In this document: piece after piece, positions 1 through 8,999 of the stretch | How positions within the stretch are numbered: the first letter of the stretch is position 1 | How the letters are laid out: each line of letters starts with the position of its first letter | NCBI GenBank assembly: GCA_963422205.2 | Contig: CAXMWX010000009.1 | Coordinates: 1 to 64,000, forward strand | Source of the DNA: Gammaproteobacteria bacterium | GTDB lineage: Bacteria > Pseudomonadota > Gammaproteobacteria > Eutrophobiales > Eutrophobiaceae | Reading direction: 5' to 3' | DNA: 64,000 nt | Translations under genes and position numbers: made by a program | Notes under the pieces: generated by a model | What the model saw: the letters and a program-made list of their open reading frames with translations, nothing else | Told to the model about the DNA's origin: nothing | Database searches by the model: none

Positions 1-1179
1 AGACTTATTTCCAATTTTTCAAATGCTGTTGTCACTGATGTTGGTGTGAAGGTATTGCAAAACAATGCTTTCTTTGCCCATCATGAAAACACACTTTTAG
101 CCATGCTTGGAGATAATGATCAAAACATTCGCGCTGTGGTGGTAGACAAAATTCTTCAAATCCGAATTCAGAATTCCCAACAAGAAGGTGAACGTCTAGA
201 ACGAACAGATCAAGTACGGATGTTTGTTTTTCCGAAGGTAAATGCTGGAGCCAAGGTATACTATGAAATGTCAGACTTACACCTTCCCAACATGCATGAA
301 CCACTAGCTACCACATGTATGTCAGATAACGCTTTGCAACAACTAGCCACAAACAAACTTGAGCTAAACTATCCGTGCCATAACCAAGCAGTGGAACGCC
401 ACATTCAGTTAGTAACAGAAGCTGCTACTGCCGTTGAAGGTTTCGATCGAAGAGACGGCACGATGAGACAGAAAATTAAGTCCAGAAGACTAATGCCATG
501 CTATTGACGCAAAAATAAACAATTTAATGTGTAACATTTTGCTGACTTTAAATGACAAACTGTTTGAACTTTTTTATGTGTGTGTAAAAATGATTTTCTT
601 ACTTTTGTGAAGTGAGGAGTGTATTTCACCAGTGTATTAATATTAAATTTGAGATCATTTTGGAAAGAAATTCCATTCCATTTCAAGAAATCATTTCCTG
701 AATGTCACGTAATATGAAGTTGCTTTTGTTTATTGCTGTTGTTTGTCAGTTTTAATGCAAAGCAAAATATTGAAAGTAAACATTTGTACTATCCTACGAA
801 TAGCCAGTGATGAATGAAATTTGAGAAAATAAGTTTTGTGCAAAAGTTAACCAAATTCAGAGAAATGTTGAACTTGAGCACTAAATTTTTGTAAAAGTAA
901 CATTTTCGCAAAAATAGTCATTTTATAGTACCTGTACACAAAAATGTTCTGTTAGAAGTAACATAAACTTGTACCTTCCGGTCATTTTGAGCCACTGATC
1001 CACTTTCTAGCATTAGTGGTTGCTGAGATATCGACATTTTGATAAAATGGCCGATTTAGGAAACTTTAAGGGGGATGTGCCTGCACCCCTTAAGTGGCAC
1101 CGACAAAAAATTGTGTTAAAATGTATTTTGGGGGTCAACTGCCAATTTTGGTACACTTGACTTTTTTCACTCCACCCTA
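1..1179 (+). mobile_element. 3' part of an animal hAT-superfamily (hATm-like) DNA transposon, truncated by the window start
   Basis: AT-rich. ORF 46-507 has FFAHHENTLLAML and YPCHNQAVERHIQLVTEA, recalled as typical of invertebrate hATm-like transposase C-termini. The element ends in CCACCCTA (1172-1179; reverse complement TAGGGTGG, a hAT-type terminus). Subterminal hairpin TTAAGGGG...CCCCTTAA at ~1066-1093. Confidence 0.6.
46..507 (+). CDS. C-terminal fragment of a eukaryotic transposase (probably degraded)
   Basis: 153-aa ORF with the PCHNQAVER motif; an in-frame TGA lies just upstream, so it is only a fragment. Confidence 0.55.
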   Translation: MKVLQNNAFFAHHENTLLAMLGDNDQNIRAVVVDKILQIRIQNSQQEGERLERTDQVRMFVFPKVNAGAKVYYEMSDLHLPNMHEPLATTCMSDNALQQLATNKLELNYPCHNQAVERHIQLVTEAATAVEGFDRRDGTMRQKIKSRRLMPCY

Positions 1180-1180
1180 G

Positions 1181-1291
1181 TCGCTACTCCTGCGATGTTT
1201 CCTCGAAGCTGTGTTTCCCAGGCGTTAAGCCGCGGAGATGGACCCCGCCACTCGTTAGACGCTTCAAATTCCGCGAGTATGATGAAGATGT
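1181..1291 (+). repeat. Probable 3' fragment of an invertebrate SINE
   Basis: GC-richer island (GCTGTGTTTCCCAGGCGTTAAGCCGCGGAGATGGACCCCGCCACTCGTTA...GCGAGTATGATGAAGAT) in AT-rich DNA, directly after the hAT terminus. Resembles an interspersed repeat I recall from tunicate assemblies; unverified. Confidence 0.35.
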
Positions 1292-1671
1292 GACAATGAC
1301 GGATGACGTTATCATCAAAATTTTTACAGCATAAGCGTTACATAAATTTCACCGTGATTAGGTCGTAACATACCTCTTCGCATTATGCTTGGGTCAAGTT
1401 CAACAGCTTGTTCGAATGGGGTTCCACCATGGATCGCCAACTCATATGTTCTAAACAACAGGAAAAGTTGATAAATTTCAACTTATGAAACCACATATTG
1501 GGAGAGAATTTTCTAATCAAACCCCAACATAGCAAATTAAGAGAAACTAACAATAGGAAAAAAAGAATTTTGAATGAAATTGTCCAATACGGTAAAAATT
1601 AACAAGAAAAAAGTTACTGCAAAAATGGCAGTAGTGCGAATAGAAATATCGACCCACAATTGCAGTACCGT

Positions 1672-1720
1672 AAAGCGGGACAGCGCTGTTTCGGGCTATT
1701 AGCCCTCATCAGCCGCCTTC
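1672..1720 (-). ncRNA. Minimal type I hammerhead ribozyme (inverted copy, canonical)
   Basis: Minus strand reads GAAGGCGG-CTGATGA-GGGCT AAT AGCCC-GAAA-CAGCGCTG-TC^CCGCTTT: core boxes, stem II, palindromic stem III, GUC cleavage triplet and stem I are all present. Confidence 0.88.
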
Positions 1721-2054
1721 AGGTAAGATACATTCATCTTCCAGATGGTACGTTCCAGATGCTCTACGGCACGTTTGACTGGAGTGCTTTGCACTGTTGG
1801 CGATGGAGAGCTGATATTTGCCTCCGACTCAACAAGAGGAAGTCGTCATGGCTTCCCGCCAGTAGGCCAGAAAGGACATTGCTTTTTTAGTTATTGCTCT
1901 TCACCCTGAACACGCAAAGAATTGACCAGCGCGATGGCGTAACCACACGAGTGGATACGTACCACAAAAGTTAAATTCTTTAAGATATATTTATCCAAAG
2001 AGATGAGTGATCCTGGCAAGATCATTCGTTTTGGAAGATCAATGTATTTAACCT

Positions 2055-2103
2055 GAGGGCGGCTGATGAGGGCTAATAGCCCGAAACAGCGCAGTTCCGC
2101 TCT
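2055..2103 (+). ncRNA. Type I hammerhead ribozyme, mutated copy
   Basis: GAGGGCGG-CTGATGA(2063-2069)-GGGCTAATAGCCC-GAAA-CAGCGCAG-TT^CCGCTCT. A-A mismatch in stem III; GUU triplet. Confidence 0.75.
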
Positions 2104-2393
2104 ACGGTACGTTTGACTGGAGTGCTTTGCACTGTTGGCGATGGAGAGCTGATATTTGCCTCCGACCCAACAAGAAGAAGTCGTCATGACTTCCCGCCAG
2201 TAGGCCAGAAAGGACATTGCTTTTTTAGTTATTGCTCTTCACCCTGAACACGCAAAGAATTGACCAGCGCGATGACGTAACCACACGCAGTGGATACGTA
2301 CCACAAAAGTTAAATTCATTAAGATATATTTATCCGAAGGGATGAGTGATCCTGACAAGATCATTCGTTCTGGAAGGTGAATGTATCGTACCT

Positions 2394-2441
2394 GAGGGCG
2401 GCTGATGAGGGCTAATAGCCCGAAACAGCATTGTCCCGCTG
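2394..2441 (+). ncRNA. Type I hammerhead ribozyme
   Basis: GAGGGCGG-CTGATGA(2402-2408)-GGGCTAATAGCCC-GAAA-CAGCATTG-TC^CCGCT. Stem III has a G-U pair; GUC triplet at 2433-2435. Confidence 0.85.
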
Positions 2442-3063
2442 TACGGTACGTTCCAGATGCTCTACGGTAGGTTTGTCTGGATTGCTATGCACTGTTGGCG
2501 ATGCAGAGCTGATATTTGCCTCCGACCCAACAAGAGGAAGTCTAGAAAGCTAGACCCAACAAAAGGAAGTCCTGGCCTAGTCCTTCCCGCCCGTAGGCCA
2601 GGAAAGACATTGCTTTTTTAGTTACCACAATTGCAGTGCATATAAAAGAATAAAACTAGTTACCAATTTCCTCAAAAACATTTGACTCGTTCGATTCCCG
2701 GCTAGAGCCGATCGCATTGGACGAATATTTTGGATATTTTGCTGATGAAAAGAGCGCAAGCTTTTTGCGATCTCTCTCTCACGACGCTTGCTTACCAACC
2801 AGTTTTAATCGTCAAACTCCTCCGAAAAATTTATTCAACTTACCGATCTCTAAAACTAATTATATTCAATCAATGTTTCAACATTACGCTCTCATGTAAA
2901 AGATCAGCGTTTGAAACGCAACACGGCGGTCAAAACCTATCGTTTGGCGAAATGTTTTTCAACGTTTGATCCGTTGTTAATACAAGCGTTGAACCAGAAA
3001 CGTACAGAGGCATGTTCGATTTTCATTCCTTAACTTTGAAATCGCAATCGGCAAAAATTAAAT

Positions 3064-3784
3064 CTACGGCGCGCACGCCTGAGGTCTTGTAACCAATGCC
3101 CGAATAGCCAATGCCGTTGATGGACTTGGTCACACCCTGCACCACCGAGGCAGAGCCCGGCTGCTCATTGACATTATCCTTGAAATCCCCTTTGCACAGG
3201 GCTTTTTTCTTAAAATACCCGTAGGTGCCGGAGACGGAGTTACGACCGTATAACTGAATCGGCCGCTCAGCCCATGCGCCGGTGAGACCTAACTGCCCCC
3301 AGCGGGTAATATCCTCGCCATGACCGCACTTGCGCGTGGCCGAGAAGACGGCATCCACTTCAGCGATGCTCATGCCCTGGATGGGGTTATCCTTGTTGAC
3401 GTACACCGCCAGCGCATCGATCGCAACCGCAACCGGGGTGGGCTTGTAGCCATGCCTGGCCTCAAAGCCGGCGATCTCCTTGTCCTTCATCTTGCGGCTC
3501 ATCGGCCCGAAATTCGAAGTGCCTTCGGTTAATGCCGGTGGGGCGGTTGATGAACCGGCGGCCTGAATCTGTACATTGACGTTCGGGTAGAACTTTTTAA
3601 ATTCCTCCGCCCACAATGTCATCAGATTAGCCAGCGTGTCAGAGCCCACACTGATGACATCGCCGGACACGCCGCTGACCTTCTGGTAATCCGCCAGTGC
3701 CGCATCGACCTCAACGGCAGTGACTGAGACAGGCAGCAGACCTGCCAGGGTGAGACTGATAAGTAACATTAGCTTGTTTTTCAT
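3064..3784 (-). pseudogene. pstS: Phosphate ABC transporter substrate-binding protein PstS, 3'-truncated at the junction
   Basis: Signal peptide plus [26 protein letters not shown] and GYSGIGY motifs. Homology stops after GVRAV, and the ORF runs into AT-rich DNA to a stop at 3023. Confidence 0.9.
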
Positions 3785-3849
3785 GCGGTTAATCCTCCGT
3801 TAAGGTTTGCACATCATCAAACTTGCACCGCACAGCCTGTCGCTGTTTG

Positions 3850-3878
3850 ATGACACAATTATTAACGGAATATGACGA
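3850..3878 (-). promoter_or_regulatory. Pho box upstream of pstS
   Basis: Minus-strand GTCAT / TTAAT / GTCAT half-sites at an exact 11-bp period (plus-strand starts 3872, 3861, 3850). Confidence 0.75.
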
Positions 3879-3887
3879 TTATAAGGA

Positions 3888-5219
3888 TCAGCGCACAGAG
3901 TTAAGCGGGCAGGTAGGCAGGGCAGCTGCCGGGGGCAGACCGGCAGGGCGGACAAGGCGCCTGGGCGGGAAAATACACGTGATCGTGGTGCCCTTGCCCA
4001 ACTCGCTGGAGATGACCAGTTCCGCCCCATGCTGTACCATCACATGCTTGACAATGGCCAGCCCCAGCCCGGTGCCGCCACGTTCCCTGGAACGTCCCTT
4101 GTCCACCCGGTAGAAGCGCTCGGTTACCCGCTTGATATGTTGCGGTGCAATCCCCTCACCGGTATCGGCCACCTCCACCACAGCCTGTGCCGCATCCTGA
4201 ACGTAGCCCCTGATGCGGATAACGCCACCTTGGGGCGTATACTGCACGGCATTGAAGATGATATTGGAGAATGCGCTGTATAAGTTGTCGTGATCACCGC
4301 GCACATACAGGGCCGGATCGGTCTCCAGGTAGAATATATGGTGTGAGTCAGCGCGCAAGGTCTGTGCTTCATGATGAATAAGCGAGAGCAACTCGCCCAC
4401 CTTGACCTGCTCATCGGCATCGTTGTAGCTGCTCTCCAGGCTGGATAATTTCAGCAAGTCCTCAATCAGGTTCTGCATCCGCCTGGCCTGCATCCGCATC
4501 TGCCTTATCTGCGGCTGCCAGGCGGGCGGGCAGTTGGCAGCTTCGCCATCGAAGGCCTCCAGATAACCTGAGATAACGGTCAGCGGCGTGCGTAATTCAT
4601 GTGAGGCGTTGGCAATGAAGTCTTTACGCATCCGGTTAATCCGTTGTATCTCCGTCACATCCCGTGCCACCAGCAACAAGCTGGACTCGCCATACCGGCT
4701 GACCCGAATCTCCAGCTTCAGCCCGGCCTGCAAGGGAGAGTCTATCACCAGCTCGGCATCGGCATTGCCAACATCAGCCAGATCAGGGTGGCGGATAAGA
4801 TGAGAGAGGCGCAGCCCCTTATCGCGGGGCGAGGCAATGCCAAGATAATCCCGGGCGCGCTGATTAGACCACTCAATACGGCCTTGCGTATCCATCACAA
4901 TCACCGCATCCGGCAGGGCCCGGGTGGCGGCCTGGAAACGGTTTAGAAAACCACTCAGCTTCTCTTCCCGCAGGCGATGATAAGCGCGCAGAGAATCAAT
5001 TTCCCGGACGATCTCATGGATAACCCCCGGCATGTCTGGCAGCTCATCGGCCAGGGCTGCATTTTTTAAGAAACGATATACCTTGCTGATCGCCCGATAT
5101 TGCCAGCACAGCAACCCCAGCAGCGCCAGGGACAGGCAGAGCAGAACTTGATTGAAAAGCAGGCCAAGCACTATGGCCAGCCCGGCCACCCAGCCTAATC
5201 GCAGCAGATCAGGGCACAT
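3888..5219 (-). CDS. phoR: Phosphate regulon sensor histidine kinase PhoR
   Basis: N-terminal TM helices, PAS domain, FIANASHELRTPLT H-box, RFYRVDKGRSRERGGTGLGLAIVKH; adjacent to phoB. Confidence 0.96.
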   Translation of the reverse strand: MCPDLLRLGWVAGLAIVLGLLFNQVLLCLSLALLGLLCWQYRAISKVYRFLKNAALADELPDMPGVIHEIVREIDSLRAYHRLREEKLSGFLNRFQAATRALPDAVIVMDTQGRIEWSNQRARDYLGIASPRDKGLRLSHLIRHPDLADVGNADAELVIDSPLQAGLKLEIRVSRYGESSLLLVARDVTEIQRINRMRKDFIANASHELRTPLTVISGYLEAFDGEAANCPPAWQPQIRQMRMQARRMQNLIEDLLKLSSLESSYNDADEQVKVGELLSLIHHEAQTLRADSHHIFYLETDPALYVRGDHDNLYSAFSNIIFNAVQYTPQGGVIRIRGYVQDAAQAVVEVADTGEGIAPQHIKRVTERFYRVDKGRSRERGGTGLGLAIVKHVMVQHGAELVISSELGKGTTITCIFPPRRLVRPAGLPPAAALPTCPLNSVR

Positions 5220-5230
5220 GGCAGGGCAGA

Positions 5231-5923
5231 TCAGTGCTTGCTGGAGAAACGATAGCCCACGCTTCGCACCGTCTGGATATGTTTATCGTAACCACAAGGC
5301 CGCAGGATTTTTCGTAATCGCCGAATATGCACATCCACGGTTCTCTCTTCCACGTAGACATTTTGTCCCCAGACCTGATCCAGAAGCTGGCCTCTGGAGT
5401 ATACCCGTTCCGGGTGTGTGATGAAGAAATGCAGCAGGCGAAACTCGGTCGGGCTGAGGGCAACGAGTTTCTCATCCGCCGTCACCCGAAAGGTCTCCGC
5501 ATCCAGCACCAGACCATCCATACTGGCCTTCGGCTTTGCCGTTGTCGGCCCGGTTCTGCGTAACAGCGCGCGGATCCTGGCCAGCAGCTCCCTGGTGGAG
5601 AATGGCTTGCTCATGTAGTCATCTGCACCTATGTCCAGCCCTTTGATCTTGTCCACTTCCTCGCCACGGGCTGTCAGCATAATGACGGGAATACTGCGGG
5701 TGTCAGGATCAGAGCGCATACGGCGGACATAATCCGCCCCGCTCATCCCCGGCAGCATCCAGTCAAGCAAGACCAGATCCGGCCTGGCAGTAGCGATGAT
5801 CGACCGTGCCTGTTCAGCATCAACGGCCTCACTCAGGCTGTACCCCTCCTTCATCAGGGTATAGCCCAACATCGCCCTGATCGGCTCTTCATCTTCAACA
5901 ATGAGGATTTTGCCTGTCATCAT
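5231..5923 (-). CDS. phoB: Phosphate regulon response regulator PhoB
   Basis: ILIVEDE, LLDWMLPG, EERTVDVHIRRLRK, IQTVRSVGYRFS. Probable start at MMTGK (5923). Confidence 0.97.
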   Translation of the reverse strand: MMTGKILIVEDEEPIRAMLGYTLMKEGYSLSEAVDAEQARSIIATARPDLVLLDWMLPGMSGADYVRRMRSDPDTRSIPVIMLTARGEEVDKIKGLDIGADDYMSKPFSTRELLARIRALLRRTGPTTAKPKASMDGLVLDAETFRVTADEKLVALSPTEFRLLHFFITHPERVYSRGQLLDQVWGQNVYVEERTVDVHIRRLRKILRPCGYDKHIQTVRSVGYRFSSKH

Positions 5924-5967
5924 AATGGGACCCTGTTCTTGGCATGGGAACATTACACAGCAGAAAT

Positions 5968-5985
5968 ATTACAAGCAAATGACAT
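5968..5985 (-). promoter_or_regulatory. Pho box upstream of phoB (autoregulation)
   Basis: Minus strand TGTCATttgctTGTAAT, with half-sites 11 bp apart. Confidence 0.75.
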
Positions 5986-6197
5986 GCTTGATAAGCCTTG
6001 CAGTCGGATTTTCAAGACAACACCATCAAAGCCTTTCGAGTTGGCAATGGAAAACGGCAATAATGCCCTGATACTAAGAAAAATCAGGTAAAATAGCTGC
6101 CCAATCCAGTCTTGATGCGGTTGATCTTCACCGCAAAAGGGTTGCAACGGGCTCTCTTTTTAACTAGCCTTACCAGTTAAGTTTAACGAGTATCGGA

Positions 6198-6577
6198 ATG
6201 CGGAATGTAATGATTATTTTTAGCAAATTGCTACAGGGCATAAAGCGGAATGACGGGGAAGATCATCATGTTCTGGTGCGATTTATGGCGGCTTTTTTGG
6301 CAGTTTCATATTTCACGGCGCCTTGCTTACCATATCGTTTGCCTCACTTTCATTTTCAACATTGCCAGGCGATTTATTTCTTGATGCTGAACTTTCTCTC
6401 ATGCTGGGTCTTGGCTTGATGGGCATCATCAGCTTCCTGTTCGGATTGATCGTTACCCCACGAAGAGGGCAGGATTCTCTGCCTTATCATTTTTTGCTTG
6501 GGGTTTCTCTACCAGCGATGGCCTATGCCCTGGCCAGCTTCATATTACAGATTGCGCCAATTAGGCCGGGATCTTAA
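6198..6577 (+). pseudogene. Small multi-pass membrane protein, frameshifted in a T6 run
   Basis: ORFs 6198-6419 and 6323-6577 join into one hydrophobic protein (…RFMAAFFGSFIFHGALLTISF…) if one T is added at 6293-6298. Confidence 0.45.
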
Positions 6578-6580
6578 AAA

Positions 6581-7168
6581 ATGCACCCGTCGTTACTGAG
6601 AACACTACTAACGACAGCAGTTATCTCCGGTTTTGCCGGTCTGCCCGCCTCTTCTGCAGAGGACACAGGCAGGAAAATATTCTGTGTGGGTGGTCATGCC
6701 TGGCAAGCTGTTGATGTTGATAAGCAGACACGTGCCTATGAAGCATCATTGGCAATAAAATTTATAATCGGGGCCAAGGCCTTATTCGGCAGCGAGGATG
6801 TTTTAAAGCTCTCAAAACTCACATTTGTTGAAGCCCGAGAGGCAGATGCACCTAAAACTCAACAAGCGACAACCCCACAGGAGAATACGCTCGTTTTAAT
6901 CGATGACGATAAAGAAACAGCCACGTACCGCGCAATAGTGGGAGAGTTTCTGGGGAGAGAGGCTGATTTGATTCCATCGTCAAACTGCCCCAGACCTGAT
7001 TATGTCATCGCTCTAAACAAAGCAGCCCATGACGATACCCACCAATTTATCTTGAATGTGGAATCAGAAAAAATGAGGGACTTTATCCTGGGGCCCCGGG
7101 ACCCCGGAGTCAGGGGCCGCTGGCTCATTTTATCTGACACGTGGCTCGCCCCAGGGACGTTGAGTTAA
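6581..7168 (+). CDS. Hypothetical exported protein
   Basis: 195 aa with a Sec-like signal peptide (…FAGLPASSA); no family recognised. Confidence 0.65.
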   Translation: MHPSLLRTLLTTAVISGFAGLPASSAEDTGRKIFCVGGHAWQAVDVDKQTRAYEASLAIKFIIGAKALFGSEDVLKLSKLTFVEAREADAPKTQQATTPQENTLVLIDDDKETATYRAIVGEFLGREADLIPSSNCPRPDYVIALNKAAHDDTHQFILNVESEKMRDFILGPRDPGVRGRWLILSDTWLAPGTLS

Positions 7169-7323
7169 TCTGATACTTTGTTCGCTTTTAAATCCCCACC
7201 TGCACATACCCCACTCACACCATCTGTAACGTTAATCCAACGCTTGCCTCTGCTATACCACACCGATACCGAGCTTAAAAACATGGCGTGATTAGCCATT
7301 TATCGCCTGACCCCTAACCCATG

Positions 7324-7385
7324 CTGTCATGCCGCCAGCGGACAGGCTTAACGCAGCTGTCATATTATGTTCATGTCCACTTAAC
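7324..7385 (+). promoter_or_regulatory. Tandem Pho boxes upstream of the porin gene
   Basis: GTCAT 7326, TTAAC 7348, GTCAT 7359, TTCAT 7370 and TTAAC 7381 all fall on an 11-bp register. Confidence 0.8.
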
Positions 7386-7506
7386 AGTGCCTGCCTACTG
7401 TCTGCCACGCACGAAAACTTTTATACCTTATAAAAATTGCTGTACCAGGCGGGCAGTGCGCCAGCAGTCAATTTTTCTACAAATCCAACTCTCAAGGAGA
7501 AGAACT

Positions 7507-8871
7507 GTGTTTAGAACAATGACGAAGTCCATTTACAGCCTGCTTGTTGCGATGGCCTTTACCCTTCTGCCTGGCGCCCCGGCATACGCCGTCAACAATG
7601 CCATGCTGGACCTGCTCAAGGTCCTTCGAGATAAGGGCACCCTGTCAGCCGCCGAATATGAGATGCTGATCAATGCCGCCCGGGCCGATGGCGAGCAGGT
7701 CGAAGGCAAGGTCAATGAGATGCAGGCCAGTCTCGATAAAAAGACCAAAAGTCTGCCCACGATCAACACCAGGGGCAAGCTGGAGATCAAGCAGGGCGAT
7801 AATAAATTCCGCATCGGCGGGCGTATCATGTATGACTATGCCTTTGTCAACGAGGATGCTGGCCGCGATGGAGAGAAAACTGAGCTTTTGACTGGACATG
7901 AATTTCGCCGTGCCCGGATTTTCTTCAGCGGGACGCTGTGGAAGCTGTGGGATTTCAAGTTCCAGACTGACTTTGCGGGTAACGAGGTGGACAACAAGGA
8001 ATGGACGCTGGCCTACAAGGGCTTTAAGGACACGAAAATTGTTATCGGCAGCGACAAGGAGCCGTTCAGCCTGGAAGAGATGAACAGCTCCAAGTACATC
8101 ACCTTCATGGAGCGCGCCCTGCCCAATGATCTGGCGCCTGGACGTAATACTGGTATACAGATAACACATCATCGCAATAATTTCACTATCGCTGGCGGCC
8201 TGTTCGGTGATGGTTTTGATACGCAGGACAGCGAGCCCGCCTGGTCGTTGACCGGTCGTGCAACGTATGCGCCTGTTGCCGAGGAAGACAAGGTGTTGCA
8301 CCTTGGCCTGGCCGGCAGTTACCGCAAGCTGGACAGCGATAATGAAGTCAGGTTTCGGGCGCGTCCGGAAATCCATACCAGCGCCCAGCGGCTGGTGAAC
8401 ACCGGTAATCAGGATGCTAACAGTTACTCGCTGCTCGGTCTGGAGGCGGCCGGTGTCTATGGCCCGTTCAGCCTGCAAGGCGAATGGATACGCGCCAGCT
8501 TGAGTGGTGGCGGCGGTTCAGAGCCGACCTATAACGGTTACTATGTCTATGGCAGCTACTATCTGACTGGCGAGAGCCGCCGTTACAGCACCAAGAGCGG
8601 TACATTCAAGCAGACCAGGGTACGCCAGCCTTTGGGCAAGGGTGGCTTCGGCGCCTGGGAGTTGGGGCTGCGCTTCAGCGGCCTTGACCTGACCGACAAG
8701 GACGTGCTTGGCGGCGAGGAGAAGAACCTGACCGTGGGGCTGAACTGGTATCCGAATAACAACGTGCGCTTCATGGCGAATTACGTACAGGTGCTTGATC
8801 TGGACAACGGCAGTGAGAACGATGGCGCCGAGCCTTCCGCCTTCATGCTGCGCTCGCAACTGTATTTTTAG
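7507..8871 (+). CDS. Phosphate-selective porin, OprO/OprP family
   Basis: EFRRARI, KEPFSLEEMNSSKYITFMER, GAWELGLRFS, TVGLNWYPN and a C-terminal F. RBS AGGAGA precedes GTG 7507 (alternative ATG 7519). Confidence 0.93.
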   Translation: MFRTMTKSIYSLLVAMAFTLLPGAPAYAVNNAMLDLLKVLRDKGTLSAAEYEMLINAARADGEQVEGKVNEMQASLDKKTKSLPTINTRGKLEIKQGDNKFRIGGRIMYDYAFVNEDAGRDGEKTELLTGHEFRRARIFFSGTLWKLWDFKFQTDFAGNEVDNKEWTLAYKGFKDTKIVIGSDKEPFSLEEMNSSKYITFMERALPNDLAPGRNTGIQITHHRNNFTIAGGLFGDGFDTQDSEPAWSLTGRATYAPVAEEDKVLHLGLAGSYRKLDSDNEVRFRARPEIHTSAQRLVNTGNQDANSYSLLGLEAAGVYGPFSLQGEWIRASLSGGGGSEPTYNGYYVYGSYYLTGESRRYSTKSGTFKQTRVRQPLGKGGFGAWELGLRFSGLDLTDKDVLGGEEKNLTVGLNWYPNNNVRFMANYVQVLDLDNGSENDGAEPSAFMLRSQLYF

Positions 8872-8957
8872 CGCAGGCGAGACCCATGATACCTGCACCA
8901 CAACCAGAGTTAGTGAGCTCATCGAACATCCGGGTGGATGGACGCTGTGCTTATATT

Positions 8958-8999
8958 GACTTATCTCCTGACGGGTGTTTGAATGCCGGGAGATAAGTC
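8958..8999 (+). promoter_or_regulatory. Inverted repeat (stem-loop) between the porin and carbonic anhydrase genes
   Basis: GACTTATCTCC…GGAGATAAGTC, perfect 11-bp arms; function unknown. Confidence 0.5.

Follow-up and report, generated by a model that had tools for sequence, protein, structure and literature searches.

A retrozyme-like hammerhead repeat in ascidian-like DNA mis-joined to a gammaproteobacterial contig

The hammerhead ribozyme repeat near the start of a contig filed under a gammaproteobacterium (CAXMWX010000009.1, whose first 64,000 nt, hereafter the window, were analysed here) is real, and belongs to a type of mobile, non-coding repeat already known from animals, the retrozyme-like elements. 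Its presence in a bacterial record is due solely to a mis-join of host DNA at 3065/3066. Our preferred reading, to which we assign a probability of roughly 0.7, is that a non-autonomous, non-coding retroelement of the metazoan non-LTR retrozyme kind, or equivalently a Penelope-derived hammerhead repeat, accounts for positions 1667-2624 as a single insertion in the DNA of an ascidian-like host, carried into the contig by that mis-join. The original prediction, in which the locus was a hammerhead tandem array releasing a 339-nt and possibly circular RNA, is partly supported; self-cleavage, release of the 339-nt RNA and its circularity are, here as there, predicted from the sequence.

A bounded insertion with three hammerhead copies

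The repeat forms a discrete 958-bp insertion (1667-2624) between perfect 13-bp target-site duplications, and consists of a 79-nt inverted arm followed by about 2.6 head-to-tail units. By direct reading, the left copy of the duplication (1654-1666) is identical to the right copy (2625-2637), while the bases beyond differ on both sides. The start and end given in the original prediction (1654 and 2637) coincide with this 13-bp direct repeat, which was not mentioned there. The inverted arm (1667-1745, minus strand), detected as an inverted repeat, is a reverse-complement piece of the unit that carries the best hammerhead (1672-1720), and pairs with 2369-2449 over 81 nt at 93% complementarity, including 2 nt common to the duplication. 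On the plus strand, unit 1 (1747-2096; direct repeat families D1-D4) ends at the predicted cleavage site of a degenerate hammerhead (2055-2103), unit 2 (2097-2435) is the 339-nt monomer between predicted cleavage sites and bears the hammerhead at 2394-2441, and an alignment places a partial unit 3 at 2436-2624. Unit spacings from a repeat search are 338, 339 and 360, the last reflecting partial unit 3, which begins with a 21-22-nt duplication, contains an extra stretch of about 33 nt, and stops at the second fixed terminus of the element. Unit 2 is 93.5% identical to unit 1 within this contig (C11), and a 21-nt indel runs with/without/with across the three window units. Tandem Repeats Finder returned no rows for 1-8000. 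What was originally described as a tandem array is a bounded insertion of head-to-tail units with an inverted arm. Units of the family (339-341 nt, GC 47-49%) have no recognisable ORF, and none of the six internal ORFs tested (60-115 aa) has a Pfam domain at E 0.1.

Complete type I hammerheads at 1672-1720 (minus), 2055-2103 (plus) and 2394-2441 (plus) were confirmed, where they had been predicted, by direct reading, pattern search and Infernal. Core box, stem II and GAAAC lie at 1688-1712 (minus), 2063-2087 (plus) and 2402-2426 (plus) by direct reading and pattern search, and the hammerhead pattern has three matches against 0.07 expected, with 0 of 100 shuffles reaching three, the matches being copies of a single repeat and hence counted as one event. 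The plus-strand core boxes are 339 nt apart, as originally noted, so that predicted cleavage after 2096 and 2435 would yield a 339-nt monomer. A structural scan of both strands of the 2.99-Mb assembly (requiring the core, GAAA and the H nucleotide, at least 3 bp in each of stems I and II and at least 2 bp in stem III) found five matches. Three are the window copies and two are weak matches within the other host-like block; bacterial DNA had none. An Rfam scan around a second hammerhead-like repeat found no hammerhead.

Hammerhead_HH9 is the best-scoring curated model for the window copies; it represents a conserved single-copy amniote motif, not a repeat. Infernal with Rfam in E-value mode (1-3200) places it at 2385-2458 (plus; 31.1 bits, E 3.9e-5), 1656-1729 (minus; 31.0 bits, E 4.4e-5) and 2047-2118 (plus; 25.7 bits, E 0.0022), all under its gathering score of 52. 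At the gathering threshold the sole match in the whole window is a tRNA, and no hammerhead is reported.

Core and helices support the assignment to minimal type I hammerheads with a palindromic stem III. The catalytic core (C3-U4-G5-A6-N7-G8-A9 and G12-A13-A14) is invariant in all six copies, three in the window and three at a second locus on another contig (C7, described below). Helix II has 5 bp, a 3-nt loop and a G10.1-C11.1 pair at its base in each window copy, and all three C7 copies have A-A at the stem II base, a position that is almost always G-C. Helix I is open, with a stem of 5-7 bp, and helix III has A15.1-U16.1 leading into a predicted cleavage site of N-U-H form. The perfect 10-nt stem III palindrome, predicted for a canonical copy, is found in one of three window copies and three of three C7 copies; in the window it belongs to the minus-strand copy, which also has a GUC site and a 7-bp stem I. 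In the 2394 copy the core is intact and the site is GUC, with two central stem III bases altered. The 2055 copy is mutated as had been described, with a stem III A-A mismatch and GUU (one of three window cleavage sites, the other two being GUC). At the window locus, one of the two plus-strand ribozymes is degenerate. In contigs assembled from the sequencing runs (below), position 2093 is T in about 95% of the depth, and this base restores the stem III palindrome of the 2055-2103 copy. The C7 hammerheads score 16.8-19.2 bits in an Rfam scan of a 1.5-kb stretch, and an E-value scan of the 20-kb C7 locus reported no hammerhead, only miRNA-like matches on the long hairpin of the element.

A weak or palindromic helix III implies action as a dimer. 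Modelled as a dimer, the minus-strand copy folds at -61.7 vs 2 x -24.7 kcal/mol, and the predicted structure is a double hammerhead in which stems I and II form on both sides of a 10-bp intermolecular stem III; the minimum-energy dimer folds of the two remaining window copies are not double hammerheads. Window unit 2 as a whole has a minimum free energy of -120.3 kcal/mol (z -5.84; none of 100 shuffles reached this stability), with z -5.81 for a C7 unit and -3.33 for the opposite strand. In a structure built from the same four sequences, of two lineages only, 98% of 403 cells are paired; compensatory changes occur in 3 of 101 pairs, and the covariation score is reached by 6 of 500 shuffles, again for those four sequences and two lineages. 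The expectation that the core boxes would be better conserved than the rest of the unit was not borne out, as there is no excess conservation of the ribozyme core between the window and C7 loci: in two comparisons the hammerhead region has 11/62 and 9/62 differences vs 48/283 and 49/283 in the rest of the unit (Fisher p 0.85 and 0.71).

A second locus and a dispersed family

The second insertion (C7:810002-810990) has an 11-bp target-site duplication and lies in a BEL/Pao-like pol relic, with an integrase-core-like ORF on one side and a DUF5641 ORF (E 1.7e-13) on the other. Its unit spacings are 341 and 341, and its inverted arm is 38 nt vs 79-81 nt in the window; unit identity is 98.2% within C7 and 84-85% between window and C7. 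Both insertions consist of head-to-tail units plus a short inverted arm, at two independent loci in 131 kb of host DNA, and they share both outer end points: counted downstream from the predicted cleavage site, one is at 13-15 nt and the other at 128-135 nt.

Three sequencing runs of one study, assembled as contigs (X1, X2 and X3), point to a very high copy number for the family. At least 53, 51 and 39 run contigs, respectively, end at the left terminus (1666/1667) with unlike, AT-rich flanks; among the run-contig ends listed, a shared terminus is visible for one terminus only. Summed run-contig depth over element bins 1681-2520 is 0.7-2.6e5, and unique flank bins in X1 have 41-47, putting the depth of the family at thousands of times that of unique flanks. 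Exact-pattern scans of metagenome and genome contigs with two patterns found no stretches in any of four scans. The proposal of a non-coding, mobile, high-copy repeat, retrozyme or Penelope-associated, is supported by the duplications at two loci, the Penelope-style inverted arm and the six ORFs devoid of Pfam domains.

Very high copy number, degenerate ribozyme copies and a core that shows no excess conservation would also suit ordinary satellite DNA spread by recombination, with the hammerhead a decayed, functionless relic and no retrotransposition involved. Such an origin seems improbable for two short bounded insertions that have inverted arms and 13-bp and 11-bp duplications and lie in unrelated sequence, one of them inside a pol relic, and that share termini at which many contigs with unlike flanks also end.

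Penelope-like elements appear to co-occur with the hammerhead repeat in the host DNA. A relic ORF at C7:802468-803004 resembles GIY-YIG (Pfam 18.9 bits, below the cut-off of 22.6) and is 56-70% identical to the C-termini of proteins of 685-841 aa; the two proteins scanned with Pfam (P0131 and P0121) have RVT_1 followed by a C-terminal GIY-YIG, at 22.5 and 21.1 vs the cut-off of 22.6. The relic came from reading ORFs, a GIY-YIG family search of the genome having returned three bacterial genes only. It has no hammerhead nearby in an Rfam scan.

It is conceivable that the unit is itself the pseudo-LTR of an autonomous host Penelope-like element, and that the loci are heavily 5'-truncated or solo pseudo-LTR insertions. 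The hammerhead is of Penelope type (palindromic stem III, and dimer-dependent folding as modelled), the insertion architecture is that described for Penelope elements, Penelope-type proteins are present in the host and its relatives, and the categories blur in Xenopus, where retrozyme families are placed as sister to Penelope pseudo-LTRs (bioRxiv 10.64898/2026.07.22.740005). Against this, both duplication-bounded insertions hold only head-to-tail 339-341-nt units and no reverse transcriptase or endonuclease; the four RVT_1 matches all fall in other parts of C7, and of these the two ORFs read look like LINE reverse transcriptases; and the sole Penelope relic seen has no similarity to the unit. 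This evidence is weak because the host DNA amounts to 131 kb only, and we judge the pseudo-LTR explanation unlikely beside that of a non-autonomous retroelement.

Animal DNA joined to a bacterial contig

GC content, run contigs and homology all identify 1-3065 as AT-rich animal (ascidian-like) DNA, in keeping with the animal host originally proposed, and the bacterial part of the contig starts after the join. GC is 0.41 in 1-3065 vs 0.55 in the rest of the window. The original prediction passed over this bacterial remainder and the artefactual junction. Since the assembled contig is continuous across 3065/3066, and bacterial DNA is likewise joined to host-like DNA on C7, near 708.1 kb, one might suppose that the element or the whole 3 kb truly belongs to the bacterial chromosome through animal-to-bacterium transfer, or that bacterial DNA has been inserted in the host genome. 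We consider either highly improbable. In all three runs the host contig and a 44.7-kb bacterial contig stop matching at 3065 and continue with other sequence, and the join is absent from the public run contigs. Related bacterial genomes match the window from 3065-3066 onward only. A bacterial pstS-like phosphate-binding protein gene (3023-3799, minus; Pfam PBP_like_2, E 1.7e-25), which neighbours a PhoR-like gene, is cut at the join and covers profile positions 8-189 of 267. Depths of host and bacterium also differ, at about 45 vs 578 in X1 and about 26 vs 9 in X2. The join is an assembly artefact by which about 3 kb of animal DNA was wrongly attached to a bacterial contig.

The host DNA looks most like that of ascidian tunicates, on the strength of an IFT80 ORF from the host block of C7 whose closest named relatives are from Clavelina (70%), Ciona (65% and 62%) and Styela (55%). 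An Atlas look-up of IFT80 had indicated Arthropoda, a candidate dropped in favour of these graded identities to named tunicates; a 168-aa ORF at 1-507 gave nothing usable from Atlas or Pfam. In all, two chimeric contigs contribute about 131 kb of animal DNA, or about 4%, to a bacterial genome record whose marker-based contamination figure is 0.12%, and host DNA of this sort in a symbiont record could pass for eukaryote-like genes or gene transfer.

Proposed mechanism and comparison with known systems

We hypothesize that arrays of the repeat are transcribed into multimeric RNA, that stem I would keep the RNA ends together such that a host RtcB-type ligase can close a circle, and that a Penelope-like RT/GIY-YIG protein may copy multimeric RNA into AT-rich target DNA. 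The template could be a linear oligomer or a circle that is copied repeatedly; the with/without/with pattern of the 21-nt indel favours a heteromeric template (linear multimer or dimeric circle) over a monomeric circle. The protein would nick both strands and start reverse transcription at internal RNA sites, and internal initiation combined with two nicks could account for the inverted arm and the long duplication as well as for the pair of fixed termini. Because its copies are partly decayed, the window locus is probably no longer active itself, whether or not the family still is.

Hammerhead-bearing tandem repeats are known as retrozymes in many animal phyla, and the element itself is of an expected kind. 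More tentatively, with the odds in our view against it, this may be the first retrozyme family recognised in tunicates, whose ends at two fixed internal RNA positions in opposite orientations are the footprint of Penelope-like integration. [quoted passage not shown] The original suggestion that the repeat is undescribed for its lineage is plausible to the extent that we found no report of a tunicate retrozyme in the literature (the supplements of PMC7229834 or of the 2026 preprint may list tunicates), but nine type I hammerhead loci were counted in one ascidian genome paper, the only tunicate record found.

Among curated models, Hammerhead_HH9 (RF02275, clan CL00010) has the same catalytic core, together with a stem I internal loop and outer helix, although the window copies (25.7-31.1 bits) score far under its threshold of 52. 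Within the reach of our searches, the unit sequence is unrelated to any known sequence.

Metazoan non-LTR retrozymes (Cervera & de la Pena 2020, PMC7229834; bioRxiv 10.64898/2026.07.22.740005) are characterised by units of about 150-450 bp, repeated head-to-tail and each bearing a type I hammerhead, and by target-site duplications of more than 4 bp; units are 350-390 bp in Mytilus galloprovincialis and 330/350 bp in axolotl and newt satellite 2, monomeric linear and circular RNAs are expressed, and the elements co-occur with Penelope-like elements, by which they are thought to be mobilised. The present family likewise has units of a few hundred bp, arranged head-to-tail with one type I hammerhead each, no ORF, LTR, PBS or PPT (here on the basis of the ORF/Pfam scan) and a GC content under 50% (0.47-0.49); it has duplications of 13 and 11 bp, thousands of dispersed copies, a monomer RNA that is strongly self-paired as modelled, and Penelope-like elements in the same genome. 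Its weak or palindromic helix III recalls amphibian retrozymes. Unlike the retrozymes described, it comes from an ascidian-like tunicate, a host not named in the main texts, and its monomeric linear and circular RNAs are predicted. Its stem III, a loop-free 10-nt palindrome, departs from the canonical retrozyme hammerhead and is closer to the 'minimal' variants of Penelope, and the main texts describe no retrozyme insertions bounded in this way, with an inverted arm and two fixed termini.

Penelope elements differ from the present insertions in having RT/GIY-YIG ORFs, which neither insertion contains, and a 30-40-bp 'tail', where the termini here are about 115-120 nt apart; the window hammerheads also have no bulge between A9 and G10.1. 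The Penelope pseudo-LTR nevertheless has a hammerhead of the same kind, minimal, type I and with a palindromic helix III (Cervera & de la Pena 2014, PMC4209133), and Craig et al. (2021, PMC8557442) describe Penelope insertions as partial tandems with an inverted 5'-truncated copy, which, with AT-rich flanks, is the arrangement seen here. In the work of Frangieh et al. (2024, PMC11167929), purified Penelope protein nicks and extends both strands, and reverse transcription begins inside the RNA, at two positions downstream of the Penelope hammerhead. The anatomy of our two cleanly bounded insertions, with their duplications, inverted arms and two fixed termini downstream of the hammerhead, matches this recently described mechanism, and is consistent with internal initiation on both nicked strands.

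Host DNA at the contig start

The assembly is a bacterial one of 14 contigs and 2.99 Mb, and the window, which is the opening 64 kb of contig C11, begins with DNA of a different character: GC is 41% in 1-3065 versus 55% in the remainder. A biological junction at 3065/3066 could be imagined, but the public contigs from both sides leave the window sequence at 3065. In the three runs that contain window DNA, all from one study (X1, X2 and X3), a host contig covers 2606-3065 and then continues with different letters, while a 44.7-kb bacterial contig covers 3065-4200 and extends about 8 kb the other way. The join also cuts a pstS-like gene (from 3023, minus strand, followed by a PhoR-like kinase) at position 189 of 267 in the Pfam profile, and homology to related bacterial genomes begins only at 3065-3066 (16 of 21 genomes with a match), the first 465 query bases having no match among the 21 apart from a second contig of the same assembly, C7. 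The join is therefore an assembly chimera and no biological junction. A similar join near 708.1 kb of C7 cuts a SecD gene and is followed by about 128 kb at 35-41% GC, to 836315. Together with 3.1 kb on C11, about 4% of the record is thus animal DNA; the marker-based contamination figure of the assembly is 0.12%.

The C7 host block contains LINE reverse transcriptases, BEL/Pao-like pieces (including DUF5641, E 1.7e-13), a trypsin exon, Sushi and VWA pieces, and an IFT80 gene as a single uninterrupted full-length 774-aa ORF (C7:783226-785547; 3226-5547 in stretch L023) that may be a retrogene or reflect intron loss. The closest named relatives of this IFT80 are from Clavelina lepadiformis (70% identity), Ciona intestinalis (65%), Ciona savignyi (62%) and Styela clava (55%), with vertebrates at 52-56% and unnamed relatives at up to 74-83%. 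Judged by these graded identities in a single gene, the host is an ascidian-like tunicate; Arthropoda, hinted at by the Atlas for IFT80, was set aside because the tunicate identities point to an ascidian.

Hammerhead copies and two insertions

The string of core box, 5-bp stem II with 3-nt loop, and GAAAC, as in the original prediction of a hammerhead array, is indeed present at 1688-1712(-), 2063-2087(+) and 2402-2426(+), against 0.07 matches expected (100 shuffles), the three being copies of one repeat and so not independent. Direct reading confirms 339 nt between the plus-strand core boxes, and the arithmetic of predicted cleavage after 2096 and 2435 agrees with the 339-nt RNA proposed. At gathering thresholds Rfam reports tRNA alone in the whole window, and no hammerhead. 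In E-value mode on 1-3200, Hammerhead_HH9 matches the three copies at 31.1, 31.0 and 25.7 bits (E 3.9e-5, 4.4e-5 and 0.0022), all under its gathering score of 52, the remaining six rows being miRNA or snoRNA noise (E 5-8.4). A structural hammerhead scan of both strands of the 2.99-Mb assembly gave five matches, namely the three window copies and two weak ones in the other host-like block, with none in the bacterial DNA. The copies differ much as first described: that at 1672-1720(-) combines a GUC site with a stem III that is a perfect 10-nt palindrome; the 2055 copy is degenerate, with an A-A mismatch and GUU; and in the 2394 copy the core is intact and the site is GUC, while two central stem III bases are changed. 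Position 2093 is T in about 95% of run-contig depth, so that the palindrome is restored there in the family majority. All three C7 hammerheads have A-A at the position expected to be G10.1-C11.1.

The outer limits first assigned to the array (1654-2637) coincide with two identical 13-bp direct repeats (1654-1666 and 2625-2637), which are a target-site duplication. The 958 bp between its copies comprise a 79-nt inverted arm (1667-1745, minus strand) containing the best hammerhead copy, followed on the plus strand by unit 1 (1747-2096), unit 2 (2097-2435) and a partial unit 3 (2436-2624). Units 1 and 3, though not unit 2, begin with a 21-22-nt duplication, hence spacings of 338 and 360. The sole other copy in the assembly (C7:810002-810990) is built of three 341-nt units plus an inverted arm of 38 nt and is bounded by a duplication of 11 bp, or 14 bp with one mismatch. 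It sits in a BEL/Pao-like relic, with an integrase-core-like ORF on one side and the DUF5641 ORF on the other. Unit identity is 98.2% within C7, 93.5% within C11 and 84-85% between loci; between the two loci the hammerhead shows no conservation beyond that of the remaining unit sequence (p 0.71-0.85). With the C7 copy turned over, both insertions have the same outer ends, 13-15 nt and 128-135 nt past the predicted cleavage site and oppositely oriented, and the inner switch point alone differs. Unit GC is 47-49%, and none of six internal ORFs tested has a Pfam match.

Summed word depth, which is not a copy number and is read only as thousands-fold repetition, reaches 0.7-2.6e5 in element bins (1681-2520) of X1 versus 41-47 in unique flank bins, with similar ratios in X2 and X3. 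Among the matches listed, which bear on the 1666/1667 end, 53, 51 and 39 contigs in X1, X2 and X3 end exactly there, with AT-rich letters of low agreement beyond (0.38-0.39); these unlike continuations indicate a terminus common to many copies at different genomic sites. The unit could be plain satellite DNA, but the target-site duplications and shared termini count against this.

Several other repeats were observed. Positions 1121-1400 and 2661-2800 are two further very high-copy host repeats in run contigs, neither with an Rfam match. In X1 the summed depth of the 1121-1260 bin, 7.8e5, exceeds that of the hammerhead unit; the next bin has 2.4e4, and 2661-2800 has 6.3e4. A 168-aa open frame (1-507, plus strand) runs off the contig start and has no Pfam family or usable Atlas match; its depth in the run contigs is about 10-60 times that of unique sequence and variants occur, which makes it a probable piece of another host repeat. 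An unrelated hammerhead-like repeat lies at C7:807805-808976 (7805-7862(-) and 8698-8976 in stretch L010), where Rfam finds no hammerhead. Its core box is intact in one copy; in another, A replaces G8 and stem III is a palindrome with no loop, and this copy sits in a 279-nt near-perfect palindrome directly after a B-box-like motif. Tandem Repeats Finder returned no rows for 1-8000, although roughly 2.6 copies of the 339-nt unit, 93% identical to one another, are present there. Finally, an approximately 80-nt hairpin at L010 10002-10095 is the C7 inverted arm plus the unit's own small hairpin, and its sub-threshold miRNA-family matches (mir-1266, 43.4 bits versus a gathering score of 70) are an artefact of insertion structure.

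Predicted RNA folding

The 339-nt monomer is predicted to fold at -120.3 kcal/mol (z -5.84; 0 of 100 shuffles equally stable), with stem I joining both ends, and the C7 unit at -130.1 kcal/mol (z -5.81); the opposite strand gives z -3.33. Across four units from two lineages 98% of 403 cells are paired, compensatory changes occur in 3 of 101 pairs and 6 of 500 shuffles score as high for covariation, counts that lend weak support because the structure was drawn from the same four sequences. Two cofolded copies of the (-) arm hammerhead are predicted to pair through a 10-bp intermolecular stem III, giving a double hammerhead in which stems I and II also form in each copy (-61.7 versus 2 x -24.7 kcal/mol), whereas the best predicted fold of a single copy differs from the active one. 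The best dimer fold of the other two window copies contains no double hammerhead.

Penelope-like elements and retrozymes

Both loci have the insertion architecture of Penelope-like elements, in which a partial tandem is accompanied by a 5'-truncated copy in inverted orientation (PMC8557442). When purified, one Penelope protein nicks both strands of its DNA target and extends them; reverse transcription starts inside the RNA, at two sites that lie downstream of the element's own hammerhead, the targets are AT-rich, and ribozyme cleavage is dispensable in vitro (PMC11167929). Such a mechanism would yield two fixed, outward-facing termini in opposite orientations, as seen here. We hypothesize that the element would be transcribed, that its hammerheads would cleave as a dimer, that the cleaved RNA may be ligated to circles, and that integration into host DNA would be Penelope-mediated. 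The with/without/with pattern of the 21-22-nt indel in the three units speaks in favour of a heteromeric template and against a monomeric circle. Judged on 131 kb of host DNA, an alternative is that the unit may belong, as a pseudo-LTR, to an autonomous Penelope element. In that DNA, a Penelope relic (C7:802468-803004; L010 2468-3004) encodes a C-terminal GIY-YIG endonuclease domain with 56-70% identity to 685-841-aa proteins, two of which, scanned with Pfam, have RVT_1 followed by a C-terminal GIY-YIG match just below the curated cut-off; no hammerhead lies close to the relic, and its sequence does not resemble the 339-nt unit.

Our search of tunicate, ascidian and Ciona literature for hammerheads or retrozymes found no such element described, the sole tunicate mention being a count of nine type I hammerhead loci in the Didemnum vexillum genome paper (PMC8704543). 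Tunicates and inverted arms are absent from the main text of two retrozyme papers (PMC7229834; 10.64898/2026.07.22.740005). The second, a 2026 preprint, uses phylogeny to link vertebrate retrozymes with Penelope pseudo-LTRs. Amphibian retrozymes and Penelope hammerheads are reported to act as dimers (PMC4209133), and by analogy a weak or palindromic helix III would imply the same. Metazoan non-LTR retrozymes are defined by 150-450 bp tandem units with a type I hammerhead, GC below 50%, absence of LTR, PBS and PPT, duplications >4 bp, thousands of copies and self-paired RNA (PMC7229834). The element matches this published definition, resembling them in unit size, hammerhead type, GC, duplications, copy abundance and self-paired RNA.
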